A stretch of DNA of 64,000 bases from an uncultured bacterium (GTDB lineage Bacteria > Chloroflexota > UBA5177 > JANWHV01), in the NCBI GenBank assembly GCA_963827235.1, contig CAWHAE010000009.1, positions 704,001 through 768,000 of the forward strand. The letters run 5' to 3'. Made by a program: the position numbers and the translations under genes. This document shows positions 6,918 through 23,055 of the stretch, in pieces. Numbering within the stretch: position 1 is the first letter of the stretch; each line of letters starts with the position of its first letter. The notes under the pieces are model-generated. The model was given only the letters and a program-made list of their open reading frames with translations. It did no database searches and was not told the origin of the DNA.

Positions 6918-6988
6918 CGCCTGACGCGCGCGCCGACCCGGACGAGCGCCGCGGGTTGCTCGGCAAGGCACCGGTGACGGAGGGATCG

Positions 6989-7399: not shown

Positions 7400-7421
7400 C
7401 CGCGTGCCTGGCCCCGCGGAG

Positions 7422-7738: not shown

Positions 7739-7773
7739 GGAGGGTATCTCGACCCCGGGTCGAGATACCCTCC
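7739..7773. terminator. near-perfect inverted repeat between convergent genes
   Basis: GGAGGGTATCTCGACCC-C-GGGTCGAGATACCCTCC (17-bp arms). Confidence 0.65.
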
Positions 7774-7796
7774 CGCACTGCTAACCGCTTGCTCGT

Positions 7797-8246
7797 CTAC
7801 GATCCCGGCGCTACGACCGCCCACCAGAAGCCGCCGCTGGCGAACACGCCCTGGCCATAGGCGTCACCTTGTTCCTTGTCCTGAAGGAACGTATAGAGGG
7901 GCGCCTTATCGAAGGTGAGCTGCTCGCTACCGTCGGTGCGCATGATGACGCCGAACGTTCCCGTCACGTCGGCCATCTTGGCCGGCGGCTTCGCGCCCTT
8001 CGGCAGGAGCACGGGCGGCCAGTACTTGGCACACGTGCCGTAGCAGGTGGACTTGTCTGCCGGATCGGCCGCGAATACATAGAGTGTGAGACCCTTGGCA
8101 TTGACGAGCATTTTGCCCGCGACGACCTTTACGGGAGCCGCAGCGGCCTGCTCGCGTGGGGCGGCCTGGACGGCGCTTCCTGCTGCCAAGGCCAGCAGCA
8201 CAGGCAGCGCGAGCAAGGCGCGGCGGCCACGTTTCAATACATGCAT
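7797..8246 (-). CDS. secreted repeat protein with Yx(FWY)xxD motifs (COG4315/Lipoprotein_15-like)
   Basis: Signal peptide, then GLTLYVFAAD...STCYGTCAKYWPP...RTDGSEQLTFDKAPLYTFLQD...GQGV. Confidence 0.85.
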   Translation of the reverse strand: MHVLKRGRRALLALPVLLALAAGSAVQAAPREQAAAAPVKVVAGKMLVNAKGLTLYVFAADPADKSTCYGTCAKYWPPVLLPKGAKPPAKMADVTGTFGVIMRTDGSEQLTFDKAPLYTFLQDKEQGDAYGQGVFASGGFWWAVVAPGS

Positions 8247-8385
8247 GACACCCCTCCATCCGGAACGCGCGGCTCGCGCCGCGCCGGCAGTCGAGTGCAA
8301 TCACTCGACTGCAAGGTGATACGCGGCCGGTTACAGCCAGCTTTCAGCCGGAATCTCGGAGACTATTCTGGCACTCTGGAGAGAG

Positions 8386-9474
8386 GTGGCAAGCATGCAA
8401 GACATCGTCCGGACTGCCCCATCGTGTTGGCAGGATCTCGCATGGTGGAACGAGCAAGTCGGAGGCGCGATCGCGACCCCCGATCCAGTGCTGGCCAACC
8501 TGCGCATCACGGTGACTCACTACCACCTGTCTCTCGCTTTGCGAGAGCTCCTCGGCCCCCAGGCGGGCGCCAACTTCCACACCTGGGCTGCGTGGGGGTC
8601 CAAGAAGGCCGGGGTGACTATTCGGCAGGAAGATGTGCCACATATTCGCGCCGGAGCACTGTTTGCCGGCGGCGCGCTCGGCGCGCTGAGCACGGCGGAG
8701 CTCCGGCATCGCCTAGCGCGCGCCCGGAACATCTCGTTCGTGACGGGCATTCTGCTCGGCGGCTTGGGCATCCGGACATTGACGCGACAGCTGCTCGACC
8801 ATGCCAGCCGGATGATTCTGGAGGGCAACATCACCGTGCTGGCCGATATCGGCCGCCAGTCCGCTCGCTTCGTCAGCACCTTCTATGGACATGCCAATCC
8901 GGATGCGGAGCGACTGGACGGCTTCCTCGCTCAGCTACAGCCTGGCCAGGCGGCAGCAGGAGGCCAGGATCTCCTCGCGAAAGCGTTCACGCACTACTAC
9001 CGGGCCTGGCATGCTCAGGACCTCAACGAGAAGCACGAGCAAATGCTGCTGGCCAACCTCTATGCCATCCTGCACGAGCACATCCGTTTGCAGCCATACA
9101 TCGTGGGAGCGATGCCGCTACTGGCACGACGGCTCATCACCCACCGCTTGCTCAACTTCTACGCCGGATTGCGAAGGATGAGCGTGGGCAGAGACGTGGC
9201 GCCTTTCGAGGATCCGGGCTGTCCCTGCACGTTGCGGCACATCGAGAGCGCCGAGCTCTTGGGATTCTTGGGCGGGCCGAATGGCTGGGACAGGACGCTG
9301 GACAGCGTGCTGGGCAGTCATGCAAACAACTGGGCCGATATCCACGACCGGATGAACTTCATCTGCGATCTCTTCCGCCAGTATCACTTCGATGCAACGC
9401 TGTTCACTGCTCCCTACGACGACCGGCAGCGCGCGGATATCGCAAGCGGGCGGATCCCCAAGCCGCCGCTCTGA
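8386..9474 (+). CDS. conserved hypothetical protein with an internal hydrophobic hairpin
   Basis: 362-aa ORF with normal coding composition. Motifs ANLRIT..YH.LS, ANFHTWAAWGSKKAG, ILHEHIRLQPYI, WADIHDRMNFICDLFR. Confidence 0.75.
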   Translation: MASMQDIVRTAPSCWQDLAWWNEQVGGAIATPDPVLANLRITVTHYHLSLALRELLGPQAGANFHTWAAWGSKKAGVTIRQEDVPHIRAGALFAGGALGALSTAELRHRLARARNISFVTGILLGGLGIRTLTRQLLDHASRMILEGNITVLADIGRQSARFVSTFYGHANPDAERLDGFLAQLQPGQAAAGGQDLLAKAFTHYYRAWHAQDLNEKHEQMLLANLYAILHEHIRLQPYIVGAMPLLARRLITHRLLNFYAGLRRMSVGRDVAPFEDPGCPCTLRHIESAELLGFLGGPNGWDRTLDSVLGSHANNWADIHDRMNFICDLFRQYHFDATLFTAPYDDRQRADIASGRIPKPPL

Positions 9475-9589
9475 TGCACGGCAGCACCCGCACGACTCGG
9501 CTGGACGGATCGGGAACGACTCTGCTCCTGCCGGGTGGCCGGTGACAATTCCACGCCGGCAGACAAGGGCGCGGGCAACGGCATACCCG

Positions 9590-9823
9590 CTAGATCTGCA
9601 AGAAGGAGCTCGAGCCTTCCGCTTCCCGTGGAGGGGTCAGGAAACGTGCCGGCACGACGTGGCAGTATCGCTCCTGGACCAGGGCCGAATACAGCTGCAG
9701 AGCACGAGCAAGGCGCGTCTGCGCTTCGTGGATCGTTTCCGGAATACCGGCGTTCTCGGCCTGGGCGAGCAGCCTGCGGCAGCGGTTGACGTCGGTTTGA
9801 GCCTGTAGCAGTAGATCGGCCAT
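9590..9823 (-). CDS. small helical hypothetical protein
   Basis: MADLLLQAQTDVNRCRRLL... has an amphipathic pattern; GAGGG lies upstream. Confidence 0.5.
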   Translation of the reverse strand: MADLLLQAQTDVNRCRRLLAQAENAGIPETIHEAQTRLARALQLYSALVQERYCHVVPARFLTPPREAEGSSSFLQI

Positions 9824-9895
9824 GTGCGGCACCCTCGCATTTCACCCCATCGAGTCGTCGTATGGGCCTACTCTACTGCGCAGGTATTGGCGCGC

Positions 9896-9933
9896 TGTCA
9901 GCGCGCTGTAAATACGTGTAAATGGTGTGTTAA
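9896..9933 (-). promoter_or_regulatory. four TTHACA-like direct repeats (putative response-regulator site)
   Basis: Plus strand TGTCAG 9896, TGTAAA 9907, TGTAAA 9917, TGTTAA 9928. Spacing 11/10/11 in an AT-rich patch. Confidence 0.4.
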
Positions 9934-10092
9934 CTTGCTGGATGGATTTCGTCTCGCCGATTCGCGGAGCGCTCTACACGATGTCGCGACGGTCGAGACC
10001 AACGCGGAGAGCGCGCCACGACCCTCTGAGATTCCGCCGCCCAAACGCGGGCGTCCATGCACAATCCTTCGGGACCCGTACGTTCGCCGGCG

Positions 10093-11751
10093 CTACACAA
10101 GATCGCCCAGCTCCGCTTCTCGCAGCGCGCCATCTTGCATCTCCAGCACACGGGAGGCGAGACGGCGGATGGCGAAGCGGTCGTGCAGGACTGCCACGAT
10201 CGTGCCGGAAAAGCCGGCCAGTGCCGCCTCAAAGCGTGCGCGCGAGGGGATGTCCAGGTGATTGGTCGGCTCGTCGAGCAGTAGCAGGTTGCAGCGCGCG
10301 GCGATCAGCCGCGCCAGGGCCAGGCGGGCTCGCTCCCCATAGCTGAGCCTGCCGATCGGCGTGAAGACCGCGTCGCCGCCGAAGAGGTAGGCATGCAGCA
10401 GGGAGCGTGCTTCCGTCTCATCCATCGGCCGTACCTGCCGCAGCAATTCCAGCGGCGTTTGGTCCGGCTCGAGCAGCTCCTGGTCCTGGCTGAGGTATCC
10501 CGGAATCACACCGGCGCCGAGCCGCAGCGATCCACGGTCCGGCTGCAGCGCCCCTGCCACGATCTTGAGCAGGGTAGTCTTGCCACCGCCGTTCGCCCCG
10601 GTGATCACCAGTCGCTCTCCATGCCGTACCAGCAGGTCCAGGTCGCGCAGCACGGGCACGCCCTGATAGCCCTTGCCCAGGCCTTCCGCCCGCACCACGT
10701 CACGGGCGCCTCCTTCGACGGGAGCGAACGCCAGCTTGAGCGCCCAACCTGCCCGCGGCTTCTCTATTGTCTCGACCTCGAGGCGCTTCTCCAGCTTCCG
10801 CTCGCGGACGATAGCCTTGCGCGCCCCTTTCGCCGCGCGCTGCTTGGATGCCATCTTCTTGCCACGCGTGTCTCCGTGATCGTAGGTGGAAGCCGAGCGA
10901 TGTTCCGTGCGGCGAGCCTGCTCCTTGAGCTCGTGGATGTCCTTCTGGATGCGGGCACGCTCCCGCTCCTGGCGCTCGTAGCGCTCCAGTTGCGCTTCCC
11001 GCTCCTGCTGCTTTGCCGCCTCGTAGGCGGAATAGTTGCCGGGGTATGACTTGACCGCGTGCGTGGCGCCGTCCAGCTCCAGCACCGTGTTCACCGTCTC
11101 GTCGAGGAAGGTGCGATCGTGGGAGACGATCAAGGCGGAGCCCGGATAGGAGCGCAGAAAGGACTCCAGGGCGCGCAGGCCATCGATGTCGAGATGGTTG
11201 GTGGGCTCGTCGAGCAGCAGCAGATCCGGGGTATCCAGCAGGAGGCTTGCCAGGGCAAGCCGCGCTCTCTGCCCGCCGCTGAGCGTCTGCGCCAACCGGC
11301 ACGGATCGATTTCCTGCAGGCCCAGGTCGCGCAGGATGTTGTCGGCGCGCTCGAGCGCCTCGTAGCCACCCGCGCTCTCGAAGGCCGCCGCCGCGCGCTC
11401 GTAGCAAGCGACCGGCGCGTCACTTGCGCCGCCGGCCAGAGCGTCGGCCGCGTGGAGCATCGCCGCGTGCGCGGCCACCGCGCCACCGCCCGGATGCAGG
11501 AGCTGCTGTACGGATAGGGTTTCATCGCCCAGGTAGCCCTGCCGCAGATAGCCGAGGCGAGTGCCGGGAGAGAGGAAGACCGATCCCTCGTCCGGCGCGA
11601 GGCAACCGGCAATGATCGCCAGCAGCGTGCTCTTGCCACATCCGTTGGGACCGATGATACCCGCTCGCTCTGCGGGTGAGAGAACGAAGGAGACGCCCTG
11701 CAAGACCGTTCGGCCCGCGAAGCGTTTGGCCAGATCGCTAATACGCAGCAT
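10093..11751 (-). CDS. ABC-F family ATPase, ribosomal-protection-like
   Basis: Two ABC domains (GPNGCGKST/LSGGQ/LLDEPTNHLD; GANGGGKTT/LSYGE/LLDEPTNHLD), no TM segments, long basic interdomain linker. Confidence 0.92.
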   Translation of the reverse strand: MLRISDLAKRFAGRTVLQGVSFVLSPAERAGIIGPNGCGKSTLLAIIAGCLAPDEGSVFLSPGTRLGYLRQGYLGDETLSVQQLLHPGGGAVAAHAAMLHAADALAGGASDAPVACYERAAAAFESAGGYEALERADNILRDLGLQEIDPCRLAQTLSGGQRARLALASLLLDTPDLLLLDEPTNHLDIDGLRALESFLRSYPGSALIVSHDRTFLDETVNTVLELDGATHAVKSYPGNYSAYEAAKQQEREAQLERYERQERERARIQKDIHELKEQARRTEHRSASTYDHGDTRGKKMASKQRAAKGARKAIVRERKLEKRLEVETIEKPRAGWALKLAFAPVEGGARDVVRAEGLGKGYQGVPVLRDLDLLVRHGERLVITGANGGGKTTLLKIVAGALQPDRGSLRLGAGVIPGYLSQDQELLEPDQTPLELLRQVRPMDETEARSLLHAYLFGGDAVFTPIGRLSYGERARLALARLIAARCNLLLLDEPTNHLDIPSRARFEAALAGFSGTIVAVLHDRFAIRRLASRVLEMQDGALREAELGDLV

Positions 11752-12043
11752 GCACAACCCCCTGGTGCACGGTCGACGTGTGGAGCAACCGGCGCGGCGT
11801 GCACGTGCATAGAGCGGCGCGCGGCGCGGCAAAACGATCGAGGGGCGGAGCAGCCGAAAGGTAAGCTGTGCGAGGGGAGCTGCCGCGAGTCGCGGCGACA
11901 CCAGGCAGGCGATGAGAGGCACAGGCGACAACTCGAGCGTCGCCACAGCCTACTCGCTACTCAGCCCGGTGTTATCTGGTCATACGTCCTCGCTTACTGC
12001 GTCCAACCTACCGATCGTACCACTCGGCGGTACCCCGGCGCAA
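11752..12043 (-). promoter_or_regulatory. promoter and attenuator-like leader with 3-codon uORF (MTR*, 11983-11972)
   Basis: TTGCGC (12043-12038), 18 nt, then TGG-TACGAT (12019-12014). GAGGAC-GT-ATG ACC AGA TAA. TGCAC/GTGCA repeats flank the ABC-F RBS. Confidence 0.6.
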
Positions 12044-12089
12044 TCACATGTAGCACCCGATACAGGGCTGAAGTGAAAATGGCTCGTGC

Positions 12090-13336
12090 CTACACAGCGA
12101 CGTCCGCGGACTCCCGAAGCTGGAGGGATACATCGAAGCCCAAGGCCTGCAAACGGCGGACGAGTCGACGCTGGGCAGCCTGCTTGTCGCGCTGGTCAAG
12201 ATAGGTGACGCCCAGCTCCTGATACGGTTCATGGTCACGCAGGAGGTGGTAGACGATGACAAGGATGCTGCGGGCCACGGCCACCGCAGCCCGCTTCTTG
12301 CCGCGGCGTGCCAGCAGGCGATGGTAGAGTGCGCCAAGGTACGTGTTCTTGGCGTGCCCAGCGGCGTGCGCAGCGTCGACGAGCAGCGCGCGCAACCAGG
12401 GACTGCCCTTGCGTGTCTTGCCGCTCTTGCGTTTGCCCGCACTGATGTTGTTGCCAGGGGCGACGCCAGCCCATGAGGTCAGATGGTTCGCGCTGGGAAA
12501 GCGGCGCATGTCGGTCCCGATCTCGGCGATGATGGACTGGGCAGCGACGAGCCCAATGCCCGTGATGGCGTCCAACCGCTCGATGTCCTCTGCACTCAGG
12601 GCAACGCGGCTCGCAACCTCGGCACTGACGCGCTCGATGGCCCCATCCAGGTAATCGATGTGTGCCAGCTGCTCGGCCAGCACGAAGCATTGGTGTGGGC
12701 CGACCGTGCCGCTGAGGGCCTGCTGGAGTTGGGGAATCTTCTCCCGCATGCGCCCGCGTGCGAACTGCGCCATGGTGGCGGGGTCGGCCGTGCCCGCGAT
12801 CAGGGCTGCCAGCACGTCTCGCCCAGATGCGCCGGTGATGTCCGATGCCACGCTACTCAGTTTAGTGTTGCCGCCTTCGAGCACCTTCTGCACCCGATTG
12901 ACTTCGTCCGCGCGCTCCCGAACCAGGGCCGTACGGTAGCGGGTCAGCTCCCGCAGTTCCCGCAGCGGGCAGTCAGGGATGAAGCTCGCCCGCAGCAAGC
13001 CGTGCCGCAGCAGGTCCGCTAGCCAGGCGGCATCCCGGACATCGGTCTTGCGCCCTGGCACCTGCTTGATGTGAGTGGCGTTGACCACGATGACCGTCGG
13101 CACCACGCCTTCCAGCAGGTTGTATGGCGGCTTCCAATAACTCCCGGTCGACTCCATCGCCACCGCCGGGCACGCCGCCACCAGCCAGTCCACGAGCGCC
13201 AGCAAGTCGCTGGTCATGGTGCCGAAGTGCGCACCTCCTGCTGCGGCACCCCTGCAACGCCTGGGGTGAGCAGACAGGCGACCACGCTCTTCTTGTGCAC
13301 GTCCAGACCACAGCACCGCTCGTACAGGACCTCCAT
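12090..13336 (-). CDS. IS110 transposase/recombinase, 1-nt frameshift near 13228
   Basis: MEVLYERCCGLDVHKK...EVRT joins FGTMTSDL in another frame. DEDD residues (GLDVH, AMESTG, KTDVRDA) and a C-terminal APGNNISAGK serine motif. Confidence 0.92.
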
Positions 13337-13339
13337 CGC

Positions 13340-13575
13340 GCTGCTCCTTCCTCCAGGCGCGTCCACCCGCTGCGAGATGGTGCGCGGGAGTGCCCCATAA
13401 CGCGGAGTCTGAAGTGCGTGCTCTCCCGAAGGAGGCAACAGCCGGTGCTACCCAAGGGCACTCCGGTCAATCCTATGCGCGGGCTCGTAGCACCAGCCTT
13501 GTTCCGACCTTCGTGCGTCCTCACCGTCTCGCCCCCACGATACCACCCAGTGGTCTCGCGCAGCACAACCACATT
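13340..13575 (-). ncRNA. candidate IS110 bridge/seek RNA
   Basis: Stems GCTGGTGCTAC/GTAGCACCGGC and GGGAGAGC/GCACTCCC. The internal loop of the second stem carries CACTTCAG, identical to the element's right end. Confidence 0.6.
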
Positions 13576-13652
13576 TTCATGGGCGGTGGTGGTCCATGAC
13601 CATGCGTATCTTGTTCCCAAACCGGGGGCATGCGCCGGCGCGCGGAGACTCC

Positions 13653-14229
13653 ATGGGTGAGACTGTGAAGGTAATGCGGGCAGGTGATCCCATATGGGTC
13701 GTCGACTATGACCCTGCCTGGCCAGCGCTCTTCGCCCGGCAGGCAGCAGAACTCCGTGCGGCATTAGGTCTGGTTGCGGCGCGTATCGACCACATTGGGT
13801 CAACTGCTGTTCCAGCCACGCTCGCCAAACCTGTAATCGACGTTCAGATCTCGGTGTCCGATCTAGAGCCCGTGGGCCGCTACCGCCTCCTCCTGGAGAG
13901 GTCGGCATATCTACAGCGCCGACAACCCCGATCGCACCAAGCGCTACTTCCGCGAGATCCCAGGGCAGCGCCGCACACACCTGCACGTCCGGCGCGCCGG
14001 GAGTTTTGGCGAGCAGTTCGCGCTGTTGTTCCGGGATTTCATGCGGGCCCATCGGGAGGCTGCCCAGCAGTATGGAGCACTCAAAGTGGAGCTGGTGCGG
14101 CTCTATCCTCGCGTGGAGGATCGCCACGCCTACACGGCAGCCAAGACCCCGTTCATATGGAACATCATGACCCAAGCAGACGCGTGGGCGCAGGAGACCG
14201 GATGGCTGCCAGGTCCTTCGGACGCCTGA
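13653..14229 (+). pseudogene. GrpB-family nucleotidyltransferase-like protein, frameshifted near 13900
   Basis: VVDYDPAWPALF...IDHIGSTAVP..LAKPVIDVQ, then in another frame RRTHLHVRRAGS...LLFRDFMRAH...YTAAKTPFI. Confidence 0.85.
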
Positions 14230-14356
14230 AGGGCGCCCTTGTCCTTCTTGGGCGCACCTTCCGTGGAGTACCCGGCCGGGCTTCCTGGGCGCTATCGGTA
14301 TGGGACAGATTGCGTTCCCAGCTTGGTCGCTCAATCCATGAAGAATCGGGAACTAC

Positions 14357-14894
14357 ATGAACGAGAGGCAGCTTACCCTCATTGAAGAGCTCACTTCGAT
14401 CTGTCACTCGCTGCCAATCGAGTTGTGGCTGCGCGGCGGCTGGGCTGTAGATTTCTTCATCGGGCGTGTCACCCGCGAGCACGAGGACATCGACCTGTTC
14501 ATCTGGGCAACTGACGCTCCTGCATTGGCGCGCGAGCTTGATCGTGCCGGTTTACGGCCCAAGCCGGACCGCCGGCCGACGCGCAGCGTAACTTTACGAA
14601 GGCCGGCGAGGATCTTCAGATAGCCCTGCTGAGCAAGAGCCAGAACGGCGCAAGAGCCAGAACGGCGAGGTTGTGGTCGCAGGCGGCCCAGCCGCCGGAG
14701 CACCGTGGCCGAGTGGTATGCTTGCTGGCACTGTGGGGTGCATCGGCCATCTCGTGTGCCCCATCATTGAGCCGCGCGTGCAGATCGAGATCAAGCAGAA
14801 GTTTCCGGACTGGCGGCCGGATCTGCCACGGTACCCGAAGCACCAGGCCGATATCGCGCTGCTGCGCGCTGCACTGGTACGTACCGAGGGATAG
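14357..14894 (+). pseudogene. aminoglycoside-2''-adenylyltransferase/Lnu-like nucleotidyltransferase, two frame disruptions
   Basis: WLRGGWAVDFFIGRVTREHEDIDLF signature. Frameshift at ~14555 and a 17-bp tandem duplication at 14633-14666. Confidence 0.8.
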
Positions 14895-14949
14895 CGGCGG
14901 CAAGGAGGTTCGCGTTTACATCACACAATCACGCCGGAGAGCGCCCCGC

Positions 14950-15810
14950 TCATCCGGCCGGATCGCTCGACCGGAGGCCGACGTACAGCAGGTGGGCACT
15001 CGTGCCGAGCAGCGAGAGATCGCCCGCAGTCTCGATTGCCAGATCAAGCACGCGTCGGTAGCCGGCCGGGTCCACAGCTTCCATGGCAGCCAGAGCTTCG
15101 CCAAGCCCGGAGGCGAACCCGTTGGCGGCCAGGAGCGCTTGGGTGGTAAAGCCATGCGCCTCGAAGAATGGCGCGACCTGCTCGGCTCGTACACCATAGC
15201 AGCTGGTGAAGCGGCCCGGTACCGCGTTCCCGTAGATGCCCTTCTCGAGAAGCGGCCGCAAGAAAGCCGGATCTGCCAGTTGGAACCGTTCGTCCTCCAG
15301 CATGAGGGTACGGCGAAGGAAGGCGTAGACGGGCATCATGGCGACGAACACCAGCCCGCCGGGCCGGAGCACCCGCGCCATCTCCGTGCAAGCGCGATCG
15401 CGGTCCGGCTCGTCTGGCAGGTGGTAAAACGGCCCGAATGAGAGCACGGCGTCGAACGACGCATCGTTCCAGCGACTCAGGTCACGGGCATCGGTCTCGA
15501 CAATCGCCTCGACCATCCCGGCCACCGGCGAGCGACGAATCCGCTCGCGCGCGGCGGCCACAAGAACGGGGGAGAGATCGGCGAGCACCACGCGGTGCCC
15601 GCGCTCTGCCAGCCACAGCGTGTAGCGACCGGGTCCGCCGCCGATATCGAGCACACGCGAACCCGTGGGCAGGCACGTCTCCAGCGCGTGCGTGACCACC
15701 GCGAACTCTACAGGGCCGTCGTGAGCAGGGCTTGTGAGCCGGTCCCACTCTCGCTCTGCGCGAGCCGCATAGTAGTGAAGCATGGCATCCCGAGAGGCGT
15801 CAGGATCCAT
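14950..15810 (-). CDS. class I SAM-dependent methyltransferase
   Basis: VLDIGGGPGRY, LADLS, DARDL, FDAVLSFGPFYHL, RVLRPGG. Confidence 0.9.
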   Translation of the reverse strand: MDPDASRDAMLHYYAARAEREWDRLTSPAHDGPVEFAVVTHALETCLPTGSRVLDIGGGPGRYTLWLAERGHRVVLADLSPVLVAAARERIRRSPVAGMVEAIVETDARDLSRWNDASFDAVLSFGPFYHLPDEPDRDRACTEMARVLRPGGLVFVAMMPVYAFLRRTLMLEDERFQLADPAFLRPLLEKGIYGNAVPGRFTSCYGVRAEQVAPFFEAHGFTTQALLAANGFASGLGEALAAMEAVDPAGYRRVLDLAIETAGDLSLLGTSAHLLYVGLRSSDPAG

Positions 15811-16117
15811 GCACAGCACCCTCCCGTCGTAGCCTCAAGTGCAGCTCCGCGCCGAGTTGCAAGGCTCGCTCGACCGTTGGCGTGCTGAGCTTGCCCATGG
15901 CAGGTGGTCCATATAGCGGCGCGGGGTTCATGGCGGCAGGATACAGGCATGGACGATCTCGCGACAAGATAGCTTCCGCCGACAGCATCGGCGGAGGTCA
16001 CCGGTGAGGATCTCGCGCGCCAGAGCGTGCATCTCCTCGGGCATCGCAAGCTCTTCGTGCTGTACCGCGCGCATCCGGGTCAGGAATAGAGCGTCTTGCG
16101 CACGCAGGAGCGGTGCT

Positions 16118-16625
16118 GTGGAGAACTGGAAATAGGATCGTATCGGCGCTGCCGAGCAGGAAGAGAATCCGACGGTGCTGCTGCGGCTGTCCAGCGGCTA
16201 CGCCTTCAGGTGCGGACACACGGTTCTTGCCGGGCTACTGCGTTCTCATGGCTGTGCCTCAGGTCAATCGCCTGACCGACCTGCCGCGTGACTGTCGGAG
16301 AGTGTTCCTGCTGGAGATGAGCCTGCTGGGCGTGGCAGTGATGACGGTGTGCACGCCCAGGCGCATCAACTACGAGATCCCGGGCACCACGGACGCCTAC
16401 CTGCACGCCCACGTGAGGGTGCGCTACGACCGGGAGCCTGCAGAGCAGTCGGGCCCGGCGAGAAGCCTCGCCTCGGCCGGGGACCGCTCTCGCCGGATCC
16501 GCGGCCGGGACGGCGCTCCCCTCGCGCACCACGCCCTCGGTGATAGTGCTCATGCCGTCCCGGACGCGACCGGCCGCCTTTGCCCGTCGCCGCGATGCTG
16601 GCGAGCAAAGGCGGCCAGGTGGAGT
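16118..16625 (+). pseudogene. degraded HIT-family (diadenosine tetraphosphate hydrolase-like) gene
   Basis: VENWK*DRIGAAEQEENPTVLLRLSSGYA [frameshift] DTRFLPGYCVL...RINYEIPGTTDAYLHAHVRVRY. Internal stop and frameshifts; 3' end approximate. Confidence 0.75.
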
Positions 16626-16648
16626 AGAAGCTGCGTCGAAGCGGCAGC

Positions 16649-17452
16649 TCAGTCGGACGTCGTCGCGGTGGGCACGCCCGTGGTCGTGGTCATCGGCTGT
16701 GCCGTTGTCGTGGTGGGCGATTGCGTCGTGGTAGTAGGCGCGGGAGTCGTGCTGGTGGTGGTGGTCGGCTGCGGCGTAGTAGTTGTGATGGGCGCCATCG
16801 TGGTGGTCGGCTGCGGCGTAGTAGTTGTGATGGGCGCCATCGTGGTGGTCGGCTGCGGCGTAGTAGTCGTGATGGGCGCCATCGTGGTGGTCGGCTGCGG
16901 CGTAGTAGTCGTGATGGGCGCCGTCGTCGTGGTTGACGCGGGAGTCGTGCTCGTGGTAGGGGCTGCCGTCGTGGTCGTGGAGGTCGTGGTCGGGCGCCTG
17001 GTAGTGGTGGTCGTTGGGCGCCTGGTGGTCGTTGGGCAGCGGTGCCGGTGGCGATCGGGATCAGGATCGGAGATCGGGTCCGCGAGCGCAGGCACCGCGG
17101 GTGCTACGATCGGCATGAGGACCAGCGACAATCCTGCCGCCGTCAGCCGCGTGATCACCTGCCGTCTCGAGAGCGTGGCCGGGCGGGAGTCGCCGTGCTG
17201 GAACAGACCGGCACTCCTCAGCTCCTCCAGCGCCAGGTCCAGCAATCCTTCAGCCTGCTGCTGAGAGACGTTGAACGTGCGCTGCAGAAGCCGGACCAGC
17301 TGCTGTGGCGTGGTCTCGCCATCACAATGCTGCCACACCAGGCTGGTCGTGGCGTTCAGGACGAAGCTCTTCCCTCGCTGCCAGTCAAAGAGGCCCAGCC
17401 CATCTCCGATGGCCTCCACTCGGACTGTGGTGATCTTCTGCGGGTTGTGCAC
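16649..17452 (-). CDS. PqqD/RRE-domain protein with internal twin-arginine leader and C-terminal mucin-like Thr/Pro repeat region
   Basis: LFDWQRGKSFVLNATTSLVWQHCDG...LALEELRSAGLF (PqqD-like); LSRRQVITRL..h-region..PALA; then ~130 aa dominated by Thr/Pro. GTG start after AGGGAG. Confidence 0.85.
   Translation of the reverse strand: MHNPQKITTVRVEAIGDGLGLFDWQRGKSFVLNATTSLVWQHCDGETTPQQLVRLLQRTFNVSQQQAEGLLDLALEELRSAGLFQHGDSRPATLSRRQVITRLTAAGLSLVLMPIVAPAVPALADPISDPDPDRHRHRCPTTTRRPTTTTTRRPTTTSTTTTAAPTTSTTPASTTTTAPITTTTPQPTTTMAPITTTTPQPTTTMAPITTTTPQPTTTMAPITTTTPQPTTTTSTTPAPTTTTQSPTTTTAQPMTTTTGVPTATTSD
16757..16924 (-). repeat. 4 x 42-bp coding tandem repeat (MAPITTTTPQPTTT)
   Basis: Near-identical units with the same register at 16761, 16803, 16845 and 16887. 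Confidence 0.95.
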
Positions 17453-17529
17453 GCGTGTCTCTCCCTGGATATGCGGATGAGCGAGAACCGTGGGACAAAG
17501 CACAAAGAGTGACGGATGCGCCGGGCCGG

Positions 17530-18330
17530 TCAGTCCATAGACGCCACCTCCTGCACCGGCTGCCCGGCCGGCGTTTGCAGGCGCGCGGATACCATGCTGC
17601 AATAGTCCTTCTGCCAATGTGGTACCAGACTGATGCGTCCGAGGCGAATGTGGCCGGCCGCAGCGCTTCGTTGCACGTACGCCTCGACTTCCTGGTGGCC
17701 CACGTTCTCGCCCGGCTGGTAGTTGCCAAAGCCGCTCATATGATAGGATCCCGTGCCGCCCCAGCGATAGACGTAATAGATGTCTTGCGGTCTGATGTCG
17801 TAGGGCGCGATCGCGCCGGGAAATCGTCGCGCAAGGCGGGTCTCGAAGTCCCAGTCATACCCCGTTCCCTCGGCCGCGTACCCTCCTACGGCGTCAAACA
17901 ACGTGCGCGTCCAGCAGCTCCCGGCATGGAACAGATTGGCCTCGGGACCGCGCAGCGTACCGCTGTCCAGGACCCATCCTTTGTCGGGCTTGAAGAAGCG
18001 CTGCTGCGGTGCGAGCTTCTCCACCGTAAAGGACAGCCTGTGAGGCAGGTAGATGTCGTCGTCATCCCAGACGAAGAGCAGATCGTGCGCGGCCAGGGCG
18101 ACGGCCATGTTCATCTTTTCGCCCACGGTGCGCAGGCGCTTGGGCAGGTTCACCATCCGCACCTCGGGATGGTCGATCTCCAGGTACTGCTTATCGTAGT
18201 CGTTCAAGACGATCAGCTCTTTCGGCCCGGCGTACTCCTGCCGGAGAAAGGAGAAGATGGCCTCCTCCAGCAGCGCCGGACGGGCATACGTCAGACAAAT
18301 ACAGCTGACGGGCGGATACCGATTCAACAT
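17530..18330 (-). CDS. GT2/GT-A fold glycosyltransferase
   Basis: PPVSCICLTYAR, ELIVLND, FVWDDDDIYLPHRL. Confidence 0.9.
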   Translation of the reverse strand: MLNRYPPVSCICLTYARPALLEEAIFSFLRQEYAGPKELIVLNDYDKQYLEIDHPEVRMVNLPKRLRTVGEKMNMAVALAAHDLLFVWDDDDIYLPHRLSFTVEKLAPQQRFFKPDKGWVLDSGTLRGPEANLFHAGSCWTRTLFDAVGGYAAEGTGYDWDFETRLARRFPGAIAPYDIRPQDIYYVYRWGGTGSYHMSGFGNYQPGENVGHQEVEAYVQRSAAAGHIRLGRISLVPHWQKDYCSMVSARLQTPAGQPVQEVASMD

Positions 18331-18443
18331 GCGTGCGGCTCACTCACTCCGTTACGTGGATAGACGACGTGCGTTCATCTGAATCAGGGAACCGGCTCCG
18401 GAACCCTAACTCGGGACTCCTGTTCTCGGGCCCAGGGGGAGCG

Positions 18444-20888
18444 TCACAGGGGACAGCTCTCCTTGAACTGTTCGAATAGCCAATCGTCGCCCCGCGTGCG
18501 GCGTCCGGCCAGGGCCGCGCGCCGCTGCCAGACGTCGCTCTCCACGGCATGCGCCAGGGCCTGACCGAAGTCGGAGCTCTTTTGCATCTCGGAGGCGACG
18601 CGCGCGATGCGGTCCTGGCTGAAGTGCAGCAGCGCCACCCGCAGCACGTTGTGCGTGACAATGCCCGGCTTGAGCTTGAGCGGGTTGACGGTGCGGAAGT
18701 AGTGCAGCACGGTGACGTCCGGCACCACCCACACTTCGTAGCCCAACAGCCAGTAGCGGACGCAGAGCTCCATGTCTTCCGAGCCCCACTGTGCCATCCC
18801 TTCGTCGAACCCACCGGCATCGTCCAGAGTCTCACGTCGCATGGCCATGAACCCTCCTCCCAGCGCGGGCACCGGATGAGGCTCGTGCTGCTGCCAGGGC
18901 AGCCATTCCAAGCGCAGATTCAGCTCCGCGATGCGCTGGCCGCAGGCCGCCGGGTACTCTGGCTTGCCCATGACGCCGATCGCCGGGCCCACCACGCCCA
19001 CGCGCGGTAGGTTGAGCGTGGCTACGATCGGCTCCCACCATCGCGCCGGGAGGTCGATGTGCGCATCGGCGAACACGATCACCTCACCGCGCGCCTCCGC
19101 CAGGCCGCGGTTACGCGCCCCAGCCACGCCCAAAGGTTTTGGCGCCCGGATGAGCGACACGCGCGGGTGTGGCTGCTCGATCAGGAAGTCAGCGCTGCCG
19201 TCGATCGACCCGTTGTCGACCACGATGATCTCGCCGTCGGCCGGGATGGTCGCTTCGAACTGCTCGACCGTCCGCTGAAGCAGCACCGACTCGTTCAACG
19301 CCGGCAGGATGACGCTGATGCTAGCCGGGTGCGTGCGCCTGAACAGGCCCGCTGCTGCCTCGTCCGGCAGTGGCGTGGGGGCGGGAATGACGAAGAACGG
19401 TGGCGGGAACGGGATCTCTTCCTCGCGTTGCGGCGCGGGCTCAGTGCTCAGATACTCGAAGACGAGCCGGGCATAGTCGCTGTTCCAGCGTGGATTGAGC
19501 GTGATGCAGCCCTGCCGGACCTGCCCTTGAGAAGCTTGCTCCCGCACATGCGCCGCGATCTGTTCGCGCTCGCGGCCGCTTTGCCCATAGGCACTCAGAT
19601 GGTACGAGCCGGTCCCGGCCCAGCGATAGATATAGAAGATGTCCTCCGGCTTTACCCGCCGGCTCGCGGTAGCTCCCGTGCGCGCCTCCTCGCATCGCCA
19701 CTCGAATCCGGAGTCATAGCCGTTGTCGAGGTGGGGATAACCCTGTGCTTCGACGAAGAGCGCGCGCGTCCAGCAGCTTGCGCCGTGAAAGACGTTGTGC
19801 TCCGGACCGCTCAGCTTCCCGTCGTTCCAGAACCAGGCCCGGTCGGACTTGAGGAACCCTCGTTTCTCGTCGAGATGTGCCACCGAGAAGGACAACCGGT
19901 GGGGGAGATAGATGTCGTCGTCGTGCCAGACGAAGATCAGATCGTGCGATGCGAGCGCCGCCGCTGCCTTGTACTTCTCACCCACGGAGTGAAAGCGCCC
20001 GGGCACATTGATCACCTGCACGTCGGGATGGTCGAATGCCAGCGTCTGCTGGTCGTAGTCGTTGAGGACGATCAGCTCCTTCCGGCCCGGGTAATCCTGC
20101 AGCAAGAAGGAGTGGATTGCTTCTTCCAGCAGATCCACCCGCCCGTACGTGGGGCAGATGCAGCTCACGGGCGGCGGATCGGATAGCCGCGCCGCCCAGT
20201 CGCTCGGCGCAGTCTCCGCATCGCTCCGCGCTACAGGCACCTCCTGCCTCGCCGTGTCTGTATGGCCGCCGCTCAGGCGCCGGACGACCTGTTGCACAGC
20301 AGGATCCTGTACCGCCTGCTCGAATGCCCGCGCATAGGTCTCCGGCTCCGTCGCGGCGACCGGGATCACCACCGGCGTATCCTGCGCTTCGTCGTCCTGG
20401 GAATACGGCACGATGGTGCAGAACGGCTCGCCAGCGGTAAAGCGGACCGTGTGGTGGGGGCGGGTGAGCTTCCAATGGACCACGATCGTGCCGGGGAGCG
20501 CGGACGTATCGGCCATGCTCTCCAGCGGGTACAGGCCATCCTTGGGCGCGTTGATTGGACCGCGTACCCACAGCAGCTGCTTCTCCCCGGTCTGTATCTG
20601 GTAACCGGTATGGAAGCTCAGGATGCCGTCACCAAGCTGGCTGCGCACGAAGCCGGGCGTCTCATCCGTCGTCTGATCGAATCGAATCTCGACGTCGGCG
20701 GCCCGCGAGCCGCCATTCCAGGTCGCCTCAAAGGCCCGAGGGCAGCAGAGCTGCCAGCCGAGGCCGTTCACGCGCCGCCATGCCGGGTTGGCCTGCAGGT
20801 CCTCGTTACCCGTGGCCCACTCCCGCTCCTCGGAGGGCGCTTGCAGGCCGGCCGCCTGTTCGGACAACGCATAGGCTTTGATGGTCAT
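18444..20888 (-). CDS. three-domain protein: DUF6065-like + GT2 + ppGalNAc-T-like GT-A domain
   Basis: N-terminal NGLGWQLCCP..FEATWNGG...G.GILSFH...GPINAPKDGLYPL...WKLTRP...FTAGEPFC. Middle VSCICPTYGR...WHDDDIY. C-terminal FADAHID, WWEPIV, ALGGGFMA, GGFDEGMAQWGSEDMEL, LHYFR. Confidence 0.88.
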   Translation of the reverse strand: MTIKAYALSEQAAGLQAPSEEREWATGNEDLQANPAWRRVNGLGWQLCCPRAFEATWNGGSRAADVEIRFDQTTDETPGFVRSQLGDGILSFHTGYQIQTGEKQLLWVRGPINAPKDGLYPLESMADTSALPGTIVVHWKLTRPHHTVRFTAGEPFCTIVPYSQDDEAQDTPVVIPVAATEPETYARAFEQAVQDPAVQQVVRRLSGGHTDTARQEVPVARSDAETAPSDWAARLSDPPPVSCICPTYGRVDLLEEAIHSFLLQDYPGRKELIVLNDYDQQTLAFDHPDVQVINVPGRFHSVGEKYKAAAALASHDLIFVWHDDDIYLPHRLSFSVAHLDEKRGFLKSDRAWFWNDGKLSGPEHNVFHGASCWTRALFVEAQGYPHLDNGYDSGFEWRCEEARTGATASRRVKPEDIFYIYRWAGTGSYHLSAYGQSGREREQIAAHVREQASQGQVRQGCITLNPRWNSDYARLVFEYLSTEPAPQREEEIPFPPPFFVIPAPTPLPDEAAAGLFRRTHPASISVILPALNESVLLQRTVEQFEATIPADGEIIVVDNGSIDGSADFLIEQPHPRVSLIRAPKPLGVAGARNRGLAEARGEVIVFADAHIDLPARWWEPIVATLNLPRVGVVGPAIGVMGKPEYPAACGQRIAELNLRLEWLPWQQHEPHPVPALGGGFMAMRRETLDDAGGFDEGMAQWGSEDMELCVRYWLLGYEVWVVPDVTVLHYFRTVNPLKLKPGIVTHNVLRVALLHFSQDRIARVASEMQKSSDFGQALAHAVESDVWQRRAALAGRRTRGDDWLFEQFKESCPL

Positions 20889-21065
20889 CGCCGGGCTGGC
20901 TCCCATATGCAGTTGCAGGCCGCAAGCGCACCTCCGCGAGGTGCCGGGCCGAGAACAGAGCAGGGGAAGTGAGCAACCCACCGGCCTTTGCCCTGCCGAC
21001 TGCGTTGCTCTCGGAGCATAGCATATCGTGAGCGATGTGCTCAACAGGTACGGCTGCCCGGGGGG

Positions 21066-21623
21066 TCAGCTCGTGCCGTGCTCCGCTTCCCAGGTCCTCG
21101 GCGGCCCGATGGTGGCACCCTTCGGCCCAAATCGCTCGACGTACCGGCCATGCACGGCATGCCAACCCTCGCCGGGTTTCCACGATGCCGTACCGGCGAG
21201 GTGCATCTCGAGACCATCCAGGCAGTCGTGCCAGCCGGCGGCGTCCCGAGCGGCTTTGCCTTGCTCGTCGAATGTGTCGAGCAGCGTCAGCACGCAGCCC
21301 TGCCCCTCCGGCATAACCTCCAGGCGAATGGTGTCGGTTCCCCAGCGGAACTCGATCACGGATGGCGGCTCGCAGGCAAGCACCTCGCCCTCGAAGTCGC
21401 CGTACTTGGAGATGAATCGCAGCGGCGCGCCGGCGACCCACGAGCCGACGACGTGTTGCGGAAACCAGGCGTCGAGATGCTTGGATTCGGTGAGAGCGCG
21501 CCAAACCTTCTCCGTAGGGTAGGTCAAGCGGCGGGTAAATCGCAGTCGCCAACGCGCTCCGGCCGGCTCGAGCACGCCGTCCCTGTCGTCGCTTCCCCCG
21601 GCCTCCGGCTCGCGATCATTCAT
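21066..21623 (-). CDS. SRPBCC (AHSA1-like) domain protein
   Basis: LRFTRRLTYPTEKVWRALT...LDAWF...EPPSVIEFRW...AAGWHDCLDGL. Confidence 0.9.
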   Translation of the reverse strand: MNDREPEAGGSDDRDGVLEPAGARWRLRFTRRLTYPTEKVWRALTESKHLDAWFPQHVVGSWVAGAPLRFISKYGDFEGEVLACEPPSVIEFRWGTDTIRLEVMPEGQGCVLTLLDTFDEQGKAARDAAGWHDCLDGLEMHLAGTASWKPGEGWHAVHGRYVERFGPKGATIGPPRTWEAEHGTS

Positions 21624-21930
21624 CGTCGTCCATCTCCTTCAGGTGACGCTCGAGGTCGTCGAGGCCGAGGCCCCAGAGGACTCGGTATGGTGCCAGCCAG
21701 TCGTCGATCTCGCGAAGCGCTGCCGGGCGCAGGCGATAAAGGCGCCGTTGAGCATCGACTCGCGCCTCGACCAGCCCGGCTTCGCGCAGCACGCGGAGGT
21801 GCTTGGAAACGGCCGGCTGGCTCACGGTCAGTCCCTCGACCAGATCACCGACCGGCCGCTCTCCAGCCCGGAGCAGATCCAGGATCCGCCGCCGATTGGG
21901 CTCTGCCAGTACCGCGAACGCCGTGTTCAT
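21616..21930 (-). CDS. ArsR/SmtB family transcriptional regulator
   Basis: FAVLAEPNRRRILDLL...SQPAVSKHLRVLREAGLV. Overlaps the SRPBCC gene, a classic pair. Confidence 0.93.
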   Translation of the reverse strand: MNTAFAVLAEPNRRRILDLLRAGERPVGDLVEGLTVSQPAVSKHLRVLREAGLVEARVDAQRRLYRLRPAALREIDDWLAPYRVLWGLGLDDLERHLKEMDDDE

Positions 21931-21950
21931 GGCTATTATGTTCCTCTATA

Positions 21951-21976
21951 GATATATAATTGTCAAAACATATATC
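21951..21976. promoter_or_regulatory. AT-rich inverted repeat containing TTGACA, putative ArsR operator
   Basis: GATATAT-N12-ATATATC just upstream of the arsR-like start; minus-strand TTGACA at 21966-21961. Confidence 0.45.
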
Positions 21977-22290
21977 GGGAGGCCGTTCGCGGTCGGGCGC
22001 GGTAGCCTCGATGCGGGTGCCGTCATGGGCCGGTGTGGAAAACCAGTGGCTGCAGTGGGTCGATGTACCATAGGCAGTATGGCGCGCCCGCGCGCACGGT
22101 GGCCGGGACTGCTCGTTCGCCGGCACGTGCCGTGTTCTTCGCTACCGGCCGCGCGGCCGGCCCGGTGCCGGCTGCATGACGCCACGGGCGGGCCCATGGC
22201 TCACTGCTTTGAGGTGAGGCATGAGAGAGGCTTCCTGCTTCCCAAGGAGGAGCGCTTTCGACTGCCTCGTGAACAGATGTGGAGTACGAC

Positions 22291-23055
22291 ATGATCGAAG
22301 CCCCTGCCGGCGACCGCTTCCTGGCCTGGGAAGGCTGCTGTAACATCCGCGACCTGGGCGGACTGGCCGCGGCGGACGGTACCAGGATCAGACGCGGCGC
22401 TCTCGTGAGGTCCGATAGCCCTTGCCGGTTGACCGCGGCCGGCCGGGCGGCGCTCGTGGCGCACGGCGTTCGCACGGTGCTCGACTTGCGCGCCAGCGAC
22501 GAGCTGGCGCGGCTGCCCAACCCGTTCGCCGTGCAGACGGCCGAGGAGGGCTGGCCGTGCTTCGTACACGTGCCGCTGTTCGAGATGAGCGATACCGCGA
22601 CGGTCGCGGCGCTGGACGAGGATCGGGATCAGTACGGCCCCAACAAGGCGCTGCTCGACCGCTGCGGCTCCGCAGTCGCCGCAGCGCTGCGCGCCATCGT
22701 CGCGGCACCGGAGGGAGGCGTGCTTGTACATTGTTTTGCCGGCAAGGATCGCACCGGCCTGGTGGTCGCCCTGACACTGGCCGTGTCGGGAGTAGCGGCG
22801 GAGACGATAGCCGCCGACTACGCGCTGAGCGATGCCTACCTGAAGCCCATTTACGAGGAGATGCTCGCAGAATGCGACGGCGACGAGGAGGCGATCGCCA
22901 GGATGACGCTCCGCTTCCGCTCCGATCCCGCCGTCATGCTGCGGACGCTGGCGTATCTGGATTGGAAGCACGGCGGGCCCGAGGGCTACCTGCGCGGTTT
23001 CGGGCTCACGACGGGCGATCTGGCCGCCCTGCGCCGGCGCGTTCTGGAAGCGTAG
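22291..23055 (+). CDS. tyrosine-protein phosphatase (Y_phosphatase3/IphP-like)
   Basis: NIRDLGG, LVRSD, TVLDLR, P-loop HCFAGKDRTG, ADYALS. Confidence 0.92.
   Translation: MIEAPAGDRFLAWEGCCNIRDLGGLAAADGTRIRRGALVRSDSPCRLTAAGRAALVAHGVRTVLDLRASDELARLPNPFAVQTAEEGWPCFVHVPLFEMSDTATVAALDEDRDQYGPNKALLDRCGSAVAAALRAIVAAPEGGVLVHCFAGKDRTGLVVALTLAVSGVAAETIAADYALSDAYLKPIYEEMLAECDGDEEAIARMTLRFRSDPAVMLRTLAYLDWKHGGPEGYLRGFGLTTGDLAALRRRVLEA

Follow-up and report, generated by a model that had tools for sequence, protein, structure and literature searches.

Do three adjacent genes of an uncultured Chloroflexota bacterium (GTDB lineage UBA5177; JANWHV01) encode a dedicated O-glycosylation system, i.e. glycosyltransferases (GTs) that serve a single threonine/proline (Thr/Pro)-rich protein encoded next to them? 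The genes lie in a window of 64,000 nucleotides, the whole stretch of DNA that was analyzed (assembly GCA_963827235.1, contig CAWHAE010000009.1, positions 704,001 to 768,000; all coordinates below are those of the window), and an earlier, sequence-only reading had described them as a candidate mucin-type system with features of RiPPs (peptides that are ribosomally synthesized and then modified post-translationally). Taking sequence, folds and synteny together, we consider it somewhat probable that the products of genes 1 and 2 of this cassette carry out dedicated cytoplasmic O-glycosylation of the tail of the gene 3 product.

In the ORF listing, the cassette comprises three co-directional open reading frames (ORFs) on the minus strand, namely gene 1 (18444-20888, 814 aa, with an ATG at 20888), gene 2 (17530-18330, 266 aa) and gene 3 (16649-17452, 267 aa from a GTG). 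The gaps of 113 bp between genes 1 and 2 and 77 bp between genes 2 and 3 bear out the close spacing claimed before. The start codons chosen in the sequence-only reading also fit the respective families: all 31 aligned homologues of gene 1 share its M1, and homologues of gene 3 begin with M-x-N-P-Q at the position of the GTG in the window, which follows the ribosome-binding site GGGAGAG at a distance of 6 nt. A promoter and terminator scan returned no promoter-like site and yielded nothing of relevance for the minus strand. On the opposite strand, a 383-aa Val/Gly-rich ORF (16113-17264, plus strand) mirrors the Thr codon repeats of gene 3; we take it to be a repeat artefact rather than a gene.

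The glycosyltransferases of the cassette

According to its translation, Pfam matches and homologues, gene 1 encodes a soluble three-domain GT that consists of a DUF6065 domain, a middle GT-A domain and a C-terminal GT resembling the polypeptide N-acetylgalactosaminyltransferases (ppGalNAc-T). The C-terminal catalytic domain (residues 522-733, 18690-19325, minus strand) is matched in Pfam by Glycos_transf_2 (residues 525-689, E = 5.8e-34, in two stretches) and Glyco_transf_7C (residues 670-724, E = 5.9e-9), and its best solved relatives by sequence are the polypeptide GalNAc-transferases T1, T9, T10, T2, T12, T4 and T7 (E = 9e-20 to 4e-14 for GT27 chains, compared to 1.5e-12 for the best chain outside GT27, an archaeal GT2). 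The sequence DAH of gene 1 aligns with the DAH of GalNAc-T1, i.e. the DxH metal motif, and all three residues (D608, A609, H610) are invariant in 31 homologues; in addition, the Gal/GalNAc-T motif (WGSEDME in gene 1, aligned to WGGENLE) and the distal metal-binding histidine (HYF, aligned to HVF) are in place. The roles of the DxH motif and of the other aligned residues are those given for GALNT1 in PMC4202792. Thus, the ppGalNAc-T-like character that the sequence-only reading had ascribed to this domain is well founded. A ricin-type lectin domain was not found in gene 1 (Pfam, E ≤ 0.1), and the protein ends about 80 residues past the catalytic domain. In NCBIfam, the top match of the GT domain is the mycofactocin glycosyltransferase MftF (TIGR03965), at 101.1 bits, below the cut-off of 280.

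The middle GT-A domain of gene 1 (residues 235-500, 19389-20186, minus strand) and gene 2 are 51% identical, so that they are indeed paralogues, as had been proposed. In the middle domain, D324 and D325 of a DDD run are nearly invariant, and the adjoining W321, H330 and R331 are invariant. Gene 2, a soluble GT-A glycosyltransferase with a presumed role in glycan extension, shows a weak Pfam match to the N-terminal half of GT2 (residues 9-106, E = 8.2e-9); the GT-A paralogues form a divergent clade in which W88, D90-D92, H97 and R98 are invariant. No transmembrane (TM)-like segment was found in either GT protein, the maximum 19-residue hydropathy being 1.48 for gene 1 and 1.15 for gene 2, and Pfam detects no PqqD or other RiPP recognition element (RRE) family in either of them. 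Therefore, the acceptor of these enzymes must be met in the cytoplasm, before the twin-arginine segment of the gene 3 product (see below) acts.

Among 8,000 scored candidates, 231 homologues of gene 1 were identified at E ≤ 0.001; the best of these is 70% identical and has the same architecture, and the domain set is shared by nearly all of the best 120 of the 231. The named homologues among those listed come from Kouleothrix, Anaerolineae, Herpetosiphonaceae, Caldilineaceae, Thermoanaerobaculia and a Methylococcaceae metagenome-assembled genome (MAG). Some homologues are extended at the N-terminus by GT25, Gb3-synthase-like, Branch (GT14) or GT92 domains, i.e. families otherwise known from the building of glycoconjugate glycans; these fusions point in the same direction as the scheme in which the GT27-like domain primes and the GT-A domains extend.

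The DUF6065 domain (residues 4-185, 20334-20879, minus strand; Pfam PF19541, E = 7.5e-38) always accompanies the GT27-like domain in the loci described here. An AlphaFold2 (AF2) model built with the 31-sequence alignment (mean predicted local distance difference test, pLDDT, 80.9) superimposes on human dUTPase with a VIA-align Z of 10.8 and a root-mean-square deviation (rmsd) of 3.2 Å over 113 of 123 residues. All 13 chains at Z ≥ 8 (Z 10.8-8.4; 103-122 residues aligned) are dUTPases or dUTPase-like viral domains, and the top Foldseek matches are dUTPases as well (E of about 1e-4; template modelling (TM) score by target 0.70-0.72). The model thus assigns DUF6065 a dUTPase-like fold, an assignment that is new here and amends the earlier domain call, which itself stands. 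We do not call the domain a dUTPase, given the lack of a detectable sequence relationship: there is no PDB sequence match at E ≤ 10, and hhalign against the dUTPase of the same genome yields a probability of 0.2, so that a true dUTPase is unsupported at the sequence level. A prolyl hydroxylase, which would have implied glycosylation of hydroxyproline, was also considered and rejected, as the model matches dUTPase-type folds and not 2-oxoglutarate (2OG) oxygenases. As to the role of DUF6065, our guess is a docking, oligomerization or uridine-nucleotide-binding module. Stand-alone DUF6065 genes that cover the full 236-position profile are found in other genomes of the phylum (G330, G338, G394 and G249; L098-L100) and in the control genome, Caulobacter vibrioides; these genes do not adjoin PqqD and twin-arginine genes.

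Gene 3 and its linkage to the glycosyltransferases

The presumed substrate, gene 3, combines a PqqD/RRE part, a twin-arginine signal-like segment and a Thr/Pro-rich tail. Pfam matches PqqD at residues 23-83 (E = 1.9e-10), and in the AF2 model the N-terminal 85 residues form three strands (10-15, 18-23 and 28-32) followed by three helices (34-41, 49-60 and 64-80), with a pLDDT above 90 over residues 20 to 80, approximately. The best Foldseek match of this part (17198-17425, minus strand) is the lasso-peptide RRE TbiB1 (5v1u; TM score by target 0.81, rmsd 2.3 Å, 23% identity), followed by TfuB1 (6jx3) and PqqD (5sxy), so that the model points to a true RRE fold; all RiPP-family NCBIfam scores, including those of the lasso-PqqD models, stay under their cut-offs. 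The sequence-only reading had invoked PqqD-fold RREs that recruit modifying enzymes to precursors, and whereas the fold itself agrees with this view, the RRE is located on the presumed substrate, not on an enzyme: it is the N-terminal domain of the Thr/Pro protein rather than a discrete chaperone binding a separate short precursor.

The segment that follows (residues 94-124, 17081-17173, minus strand) resembles a signal for twin-arginine translocation (Tat), with S-R-R-Q-V-I, a hydrophobic stretch with a hydropathy peak of 1.96 at residue 106 and A-L-A before Asp125. R96 and R97 are invariant in 40 sequences, and the pair comes after the folded 85-residue domain, not in an N-terminal signal. 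The Tat signal model TIGR01409 scores the leader of gene 3 at 14.5 bits, under its cut-off of 16.7, and is matched at E ≤ 0.1 by 17 of 40 family members. With respect to machinery, the genome encodes TatC in one copy (PF00902, E = 4.4e-54).

The predicted mature tail (residues 125-267, 16652-17080, minus strand) consists of 143 residues, including 69 Thr (48%), 25 Pro (17%) and 7 Ser, and its AF2 pLDDT of 51-62 is consistent with disorder. Tandem Repeats Finder locates in it a 42-bp repeat (16758-16933, minus strand; 4.2 copies, 97% matches) that is in frame and encodes a 14-residue Thr/Pro unit. All domain calls of the sequence-only reading hold for the three genes: DUF6065-GT2-GT, GT2 and PqqD with an S-R-R leader and a Thr/Pro repeat. 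The tail begins with a short Asp/His/Arg-rich run (17036-17080, residues 125-139, with D-P and R-H pairs), which precedes the Thr/Pro-rich part. In many relatives (P0124, P0130, P0136, P0186), an Asp/His-rich run, often ended by Cys, stands at the same place, after the predicted cleavage site and ahead of the Thr run, and may bind metal or take part in processing.

To what extent are the GTs and the relatives of gene 3 linked elsewhere? A search from the GT side recovered nine genome loci, three of which (3.5, 3.8 and 9.9 kb) matched the GT-A paralogue alone, and in all six loci with DUF6065 and the C-terminal GT domain (hereafter GTc), which come from Chloroflexia, Herpetosiphonaceae and Thermoanaerobaculia MAGs, a PqqD and twin-arginine (PqqD-RR) gene is directly adjacent. 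Copies of gene 2 also directly adjoin the PqqD gene in related loci. From the PqqD side, 82 PqqD ORFs in 80 metagenome loci were classified by script into 34 with a Thr/Pro tail or a beta-domain, 33 of a sister clade without a Thr/Pro stretch and 15 that were left unclassified due to contig ends or frame breaks (2 of these 15 with a GT). In the first class, 30 of the 34 have DUF6065 or GT matches on the contig, with the nearest GT ORF 0-232 bp away; among these 30 GT-linked loci, the matches are on the same strand only in 28, divergent in L014 and on both strands in L039. The four loci without GTs are L065 (1.4 kb), L079 (1.1 kb), L031 (2.6 kb) and L072 (gene at the contig start). By contrast, such a GT is lacking in all 33 members of the sister clade, whose flanks extend up to 9,982 bp (L044), 7,276 bp (L060) and 5,093 bp (L067). 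This contrast is what the glycosylation hypothesis predicts, and the neighbourhood search that had been suggested as a check of conserved linkage gives a positive answer across phyla from either side. The sister clade itself (L023, L027, L030, L044, L060, L067 and 27 further loci) has a C-terminal domain of about 200 aa that ends in an F-x-F-T-N-I-like motif, and no conserved neighbours were observed on its contigs.

Comparison of the domain sets of the 30 GT-linked loci revealed DUF6065, GT-A and GTc in 12 and DUF6065 and GTc only in 9, with the rest cut by contig ends. The 9 loci without GT-A paralogues include three of 15.8-20 kb (L061, L076 and L077), so the constant core consists of the PqqD-RR protein and DUF6065-GTc, to which GT-A paralogues may or may not be added. 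This smallest conserved combination, a new finding here, agrees with the GT27-like domain as the primer and the GT-A domains as extenders, and priming by the ppGalNAc-T-like domain, as put forward in the sequence-only reading, fits it as well, the order of GT action being itself a prediction.

In most relatives, a beta-domain of about 100 aa is inserted before the terminal Thr/Pro tail; the clade of the window lacks it. As most relatives carry the Thr/Pro stretch at their very C-terminal end, it is not an inter-domain linker. Accordingly, the description of the exported product as a mini-mucin suits the clade of the window but not the whole family, where the beta-domain prevails and the tail sometimes holds only 5-6 Thr. 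Some members deviate at the C-terminus. In P0126, P0140, P0149, P0153 and P0170, a PxKF domain (NCBIfam NF038114; 5 of 40 members, best E = 2e-44) follows the Thr/Pro stretch, which is here an internal linker, and in P0127 and P0128 the Thr/Pro tail ends with a P-E-A-P-like motif, a hydrophobic stretch and an Arg cluster, which looks like a PEP-CTERM-type sorting signal.

The same data bear on the possibility that the GTs build a glycan on a lipid carrier, a polysaccharide or a glycolipid, and that the PqqD-RR protein is a membrane-anchored organizer or regulator, with an uncleaved signal-anchor, the RRE inside and the Thr/Pro stalk outside, the tail being unglycosylated or glycosylated extracellularly by other enzymes. 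GT2-type GT-A domains belong mostly to polysaccharide synthesis, the weaker NCBIfam matches include EpsD, PgaC, HpsN and TuaG, and the profile of the GT-A paralogue clade yields only weak GT2 matches, namely to heparosan synthase B (2.7e-5) and PglI (4.7e-4); the hydrophobic segment of gene 3 could act as a TM anchor, and the PqqD-RR module is also found without these GTs. Nevertheless, we regard this explanation as unlikely. Neither flippase, polymerase, priming transferase nor sugar-nucleotide gene was found among the window neighbours scanned with Pfam (12090-15819 and 21066-23055, two intervals that stop short of the small ORFs at 15.8-16.6 kb and of the ABC-transporter genes beyond 23 kb); a TM-like segment is lacking in the GTs, and GT adjacency follows the Thr/Pro-tail clade; among solved proteins, those nearest to the constant GT domain are GT27 enzymes, which act on peptides, and A-x-A follows the hydrophobic stretch in 84 of 124 sequences of the wider family.

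Under cytoplasmic O-glycosylation of the tail, which we favour, gene 3 would be made as a pro-protein with a folded RRE, a twin-arginine signal and a disordered Thr/Pro tail. The soluble GT27-like domain of gene 1 would add the first sugar to threonines in the cytoplasm, and the two GT-A paralogues, i.e. the middle domain of gene 1 and gene 2, would extend the glycan. Tat leaders insert into the translocase as a hairpin; the leader of gene 3 would do the same, with the N-terminal RRE staying in the cytoplasm while the twin-arginine signal brings the tail, bulky with its glycans, across the membrane by way of Tat, a reasonable pathway for large cargo that has been modified beforehand. Signal peptidase would then cut after A-L-A, freeing a glycopolypeptide of about 143 residues. 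The RRE may serve as a recognition handle that either docks on the GTs or holds its own leader, such that export waits for modification; we lean slightly towards the more general role of presenting or holding the leader, as the module is found in the company of other enzymes, too, and in places where no enzymes are nearby. A complex prediction for gene 1 (814 aa) and residues 1-135 of gene 3 scored 0.18 against a mark of 0.32 and, being made without controls, speaks neither for nor against binding.

Several observations weigh against this mechanism. In the AF2 model of gene 3, the leader region is of low confidence and no strand is docked on the RRE; the twin-arginine segment scores below the TIGR01409 cut-off and, at about 95 residues from the N-terminus, is in an unusual position for a Tat signal. 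The top NCBIfam match of the GT domain, MftF, acts on a small RiPP-derived molecule. The contrast between 30 of 34 and 0 of 33 loci reflects, in essence, a single event in evolution, and the contigs of the GT-less clade are in many cases short. Furthermore, the PqqD-RR module occurs without these GTs in the sister clade and in kinase-linked relatives, so that the RRE need not be a GT-docking device. Finally, some GT-adjacent relatives have only 5-6 Thr past the beta-domain (L076, L077, L087, L089), and one relative, P0186, has no Thr/Pro stretch at all.

The wider PqqD and twin-arginine family

All 82 close homologues of the N-terminal part of gene 3 have the arginine pair (RR) and the hydrophobic stretch (81 of 82 by script, the last one seen separately). 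A search of 1.84 billion representatives identified 1,969 proteins at E ≤ 0.001, among them 149 at E ≤ 1e-10. Within the best 150 of the 1,969, 132 have RR or KR followed by a hydrophobic stretch, and the cargo of these 132 is Cys-rich in 42, Thr/Pro in 15, Gly-rich in 6, short in 8 and other in 61. Under a strict RR rule, 124 of 151 sequences (the 150 representatives and gene 3) conform, with the motif [ST]-R-R-x-[VLAM]-[LI]-[KR]; S or T precedes the pair in 95 of the 124. The PqqD and twin-arginine module thus stands at the head of a large family, new here, in which both the cargo and the partner enzymes vary.

The composition of this family is relevant to a narrower pathway of the RiPP type, in which a small piece of the gene 3 product would receive sugars, be cut out and be secreted as a glycopeptide or a product akin to a cofactor; the GT27/MftF-like domain would play the part that it has in mycofactocin or glycocin biosynthesis, and the Thr/Pro array would serve as a multi-core precursor. 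Short Cys-rich cargo of RiPP-like size in 42 of the 150 wider-family representatives, the proximity of the RRE fold to lasso-peptide B1 proteins, MftF as the best NCBIfam match of the GT domain and the 14-residue repeats of the tail would all be at home in such a pathway. However, the cargo of most relatives of gene 3 is a folded beta-domain of about 100 aa, the MftF score of 101 bits is far from its cut-off of 280, and no protease, cyclase, radical S-adenosylmethionine (SAM) or transporter gene is present among the scanned neighbours in the window. We therefore consider this pathway improbable, more so than synthesis on a lipid or polysaccharide acceptor.

Apart from the GT27-like enzymes, which we hold to be the probable modifiers of the Thr/Pro tail, the module has other partners in other clades. 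One of the known systems close to the cassette is the HPr-rel-A system, made up of an HprK-related kinase A (TIGR04352) and a PqqD chaperone (TIGR04353): TIGR04353 is matched by 39 of 40 family members at E ≤ 0.1, and distant proteins with PqqD, RR and cargo stand beside HprK-related-kinase-like and NTP_transf_5 genes. The cassette differs from this system in that gene 3 scores 25.2 bits on TIGR04353, below the cut-off of 35, in that three kinase queries found no HprK-like kinase among the ORFs of the window or of 89 related loci (L002-L091), and in that its partners are GTs. The distant members in the phylum of the window pass the Pfam PqqD threshold and adjoin other enzymes. Genes resembling HprK-related kinase A (TIGR04352, E = 1e-15 to 1e-20, under the cut-off) were identified in L092 (7346-8416), L094 (9114-10514) and L096 (7087-7977), where they directly adjoin PqqD-RR proteins, one with Gly-rich cargo (ALK/LTK glycine-rich domain) and two with Cys-rich cargo. 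The L094 kinase carries a fused ResA-like thioredoxin domain, and in L096, an NTP_transf_5 gene and a gene for an NAGPA-like phosphodiester glycosidase are also adjacent.

Locus L095 (Pfam PqqD, 26.9 bits) encodes a PqqD-RR protein in which Thr-Pro dipeptides are repeated over a very long stretch; its neighbourhood (region 3463-15592) includes an O-FucT-family GT, a 2OG-Fe(II) oxygenase (PF13640), a UDP-glucose-dehydrogenase-family gene, a GFO/IDH/MocA oxidoreductase and an NTP_transf_5 gene. This is a second, independent and distant association of Thr/Pro cargo with glycosylation-type enzymes, here of another family, and the neighbourhood suggests proline hydroxylation and glycosylation of the repeat.

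The same module thus appears on Thr/Pro-rich, Cys-rich, Gly-rich and folded cargo, with different enzymes in each clade, i.e. GT27-like GTs, HprK-like kinases with nucleotidyltransferases, or an O-FucT-like GT with a 2OG oxygenase (PF13640). From this distribution, we tentatively propose, as a possibility that we rate below cytoplasmic O-glycosylation itself, that the RRE and the twin-arginine leader make up a general cis-acting module for modifying first and exporting afterwards, and that the proteins carrying it constitute an unrecognized superfamily of leader-guided cytoplasmic modification coupled to Tat export. The cassette of the window would then be the first bacterial pathway of mucin-type, GT27-like Thr O-glycosylation and its product the first glycoprotein made for Tat export.

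Genomic setting, known systems and meaning

The genome has one copy of DUF6065 and one of the PqqD-RR gene. Among 401 sampled genomes of the same phylum, the PqqD-RR part was matched at E ≤ 1e-5 in 16 (the best match besides the window being 41% identical) and DUF6065 was found in 7; in 4 genomes of the same genus, neither was found. In one of these congeners, G154, a single contig is syntenic, at 78-81% identity, with both flanks (window up to 9.9 kb and beyond 22.3 kb), and the stretch between them (9900-22300, about 12.4 kb) is replaced by about 6 kb without a match. Besides the cassette, this stretch contains an IS110-family transposase (12090-13316, minus strand; Pfam DEDD_Tnp_IS110 and Transposase_20), a truncated GrpB (13596-14360, profile positions 1-81 of 159), an aminoglycoside-2''-adenylyltransferase (ANT(2''))-like fragment (14357-14623, positions 5-72 of 149), a SAM methyltransferase and a pair of ArsR and AHSA1/SRPBCC genes; the scanned neighbours are the transposase, the GrpB and ANT fragments, the methyltransferase, AHSA1, ArsR and a tyrosine phosphatase. 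The cassette is accessory and was probably acquired, judging from its single copy, its not being found in the congeners and the synteny break with the IS110 transposase. No sugar-nucleotide or peptidase gene was detected among the neighbours at 12090-15819 and 21066-23055, in line with what had been noted for the cluster before.

Such a setting raises the possibility of a recently acquired passenger in a decaying island that is silent or non-functional in this organism. The cassette was not found in 4 of 4 congeners, its stretch breaks the synteny with G154, and the same stretch holds the transposase and the truncated GrpB and ANT(2'')-like fragments. All three genes are, nonetheless, full length and keep the invariant residues of their families, the repeat array is in frame and gene 3 is preceded by a ribosome-binding site, and we consider a silent passenger very improbable. 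A look-up of sequencing runs that contain the cassette returned none, which speaks neither for nor against its expression.

How does a system for cytoplasmic O-glycosylation of a dedicated substrate, if this is what the cassette encodes, compare with those already known? It shares with eukaryotic mucin-type O-glycosylation the DxH motif, the Gal/GalNAc-T motif and the distal histidine in gene 1, a presumed acceptor in the form of a disordered Thr/Pro-rich repeat, and further GTs for extension (the Branch/GT14, GT25 and GT92 fusions in homologues). However, eukaryotic GT27 enzymes have a type II membrane stem and reside in the secretory pathway, whereas the GT of the cassette is bacterial, predicted to be cytoplasmic and devoid of a TM stem; they possess a ricin-type lectin domain, whereas gene 1 appears without one in Pfam and is fused to a dUTPase-like domain and a second GT-A domain; and the substrate of the cassette carries its own RRE and twin-arginine signal.

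In the serine-rich-repeat glycoproteins (GspB/Fap1), a dedicated Ser/Thr-rich substrate is glycosylated in the cytoplasm by linked GTs and exported by the accessory Sec system. The logic proposed for the cassette is similar, namely a private substrate, cytoplasmic glycosylation and a special export route, but the components differ: neither GT4 enzymes of the GtfA/GtfB type nor SecA2/SecY2 are present in the cassette or its scanned neighbours, genes 1 and 2 contain only GT2-type families, the tail is rich in Thr/Pro rather than Ser, an RRE is present, and export would use the general Tat pathway. The distinction from GT4/accessory-Sec systems drawn in the sequence-only reading is thereby upheld, and the cassette is a member of neither the eukaryotic mucin-type nor the accessory-Sec systems.

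With RRE-dependent RiPP pathways (lasso B1, PqqD, MftB/MftF and the GT2 of glycocins), the cassette has in common the RRE fold, a leader-like part before the modified part and a GT2-type partner. In those pathways, the RRE is on an enzyme or a separate chaperone, whereas here it is on the substrate, N-terminal to the leader; the equivalent of the core is a polypeptide of 143 residues or, in relatives, a folded domain with a tail; and there is no dedicated leader protease or transporter among the scanned neighbours, the small ORFs at 15.8-16.6 kb lying outside the scan. Tat proofreading chaperones such as TorD and DmsD are cytoplasmic and hold the twin-arginine leader until maturation of the cargo ends. 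The likeness to the cassette is in possible logic only, as the fold here is an RRE that acts in cis and maturation would consist of glycosylation rather than cofactor insertion.

PMC12710340 describes RREs fused to PF00535 glycosyltransferases and, in another RRE group, signal-peptide-bearing precursors. No description of the present system was found in the literature searched, in agreement with the earlier failure to recognize a described pathway, although the supplementary RRE census of PMC12710340 may list PqqD-RR fusions.

If the proposed cytoplasmic O-glycosylation is true, bacteria would have soluble enzymes related to those that initiate mucin glycosylation in animals, every one of them paired with its own Thr/Pro-rich substrate, and this would offer a new view on the evolutionary place of GT27-type chemistry as well as a small set of three genes from which mucin-like glycopolypeptides could be produced in the bacterial cytoplasm. 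It would further follow that the Tat pathway can carry glycosylated cargo and that the RRE, the part by which RiPP enzymes are known to bind leaders, can belong to a substrate. Beyond the cassette, the wider PqqD and twin-arginine family may hold many secreted peptides and proteins with linked modifying enzymes as candidates for study.

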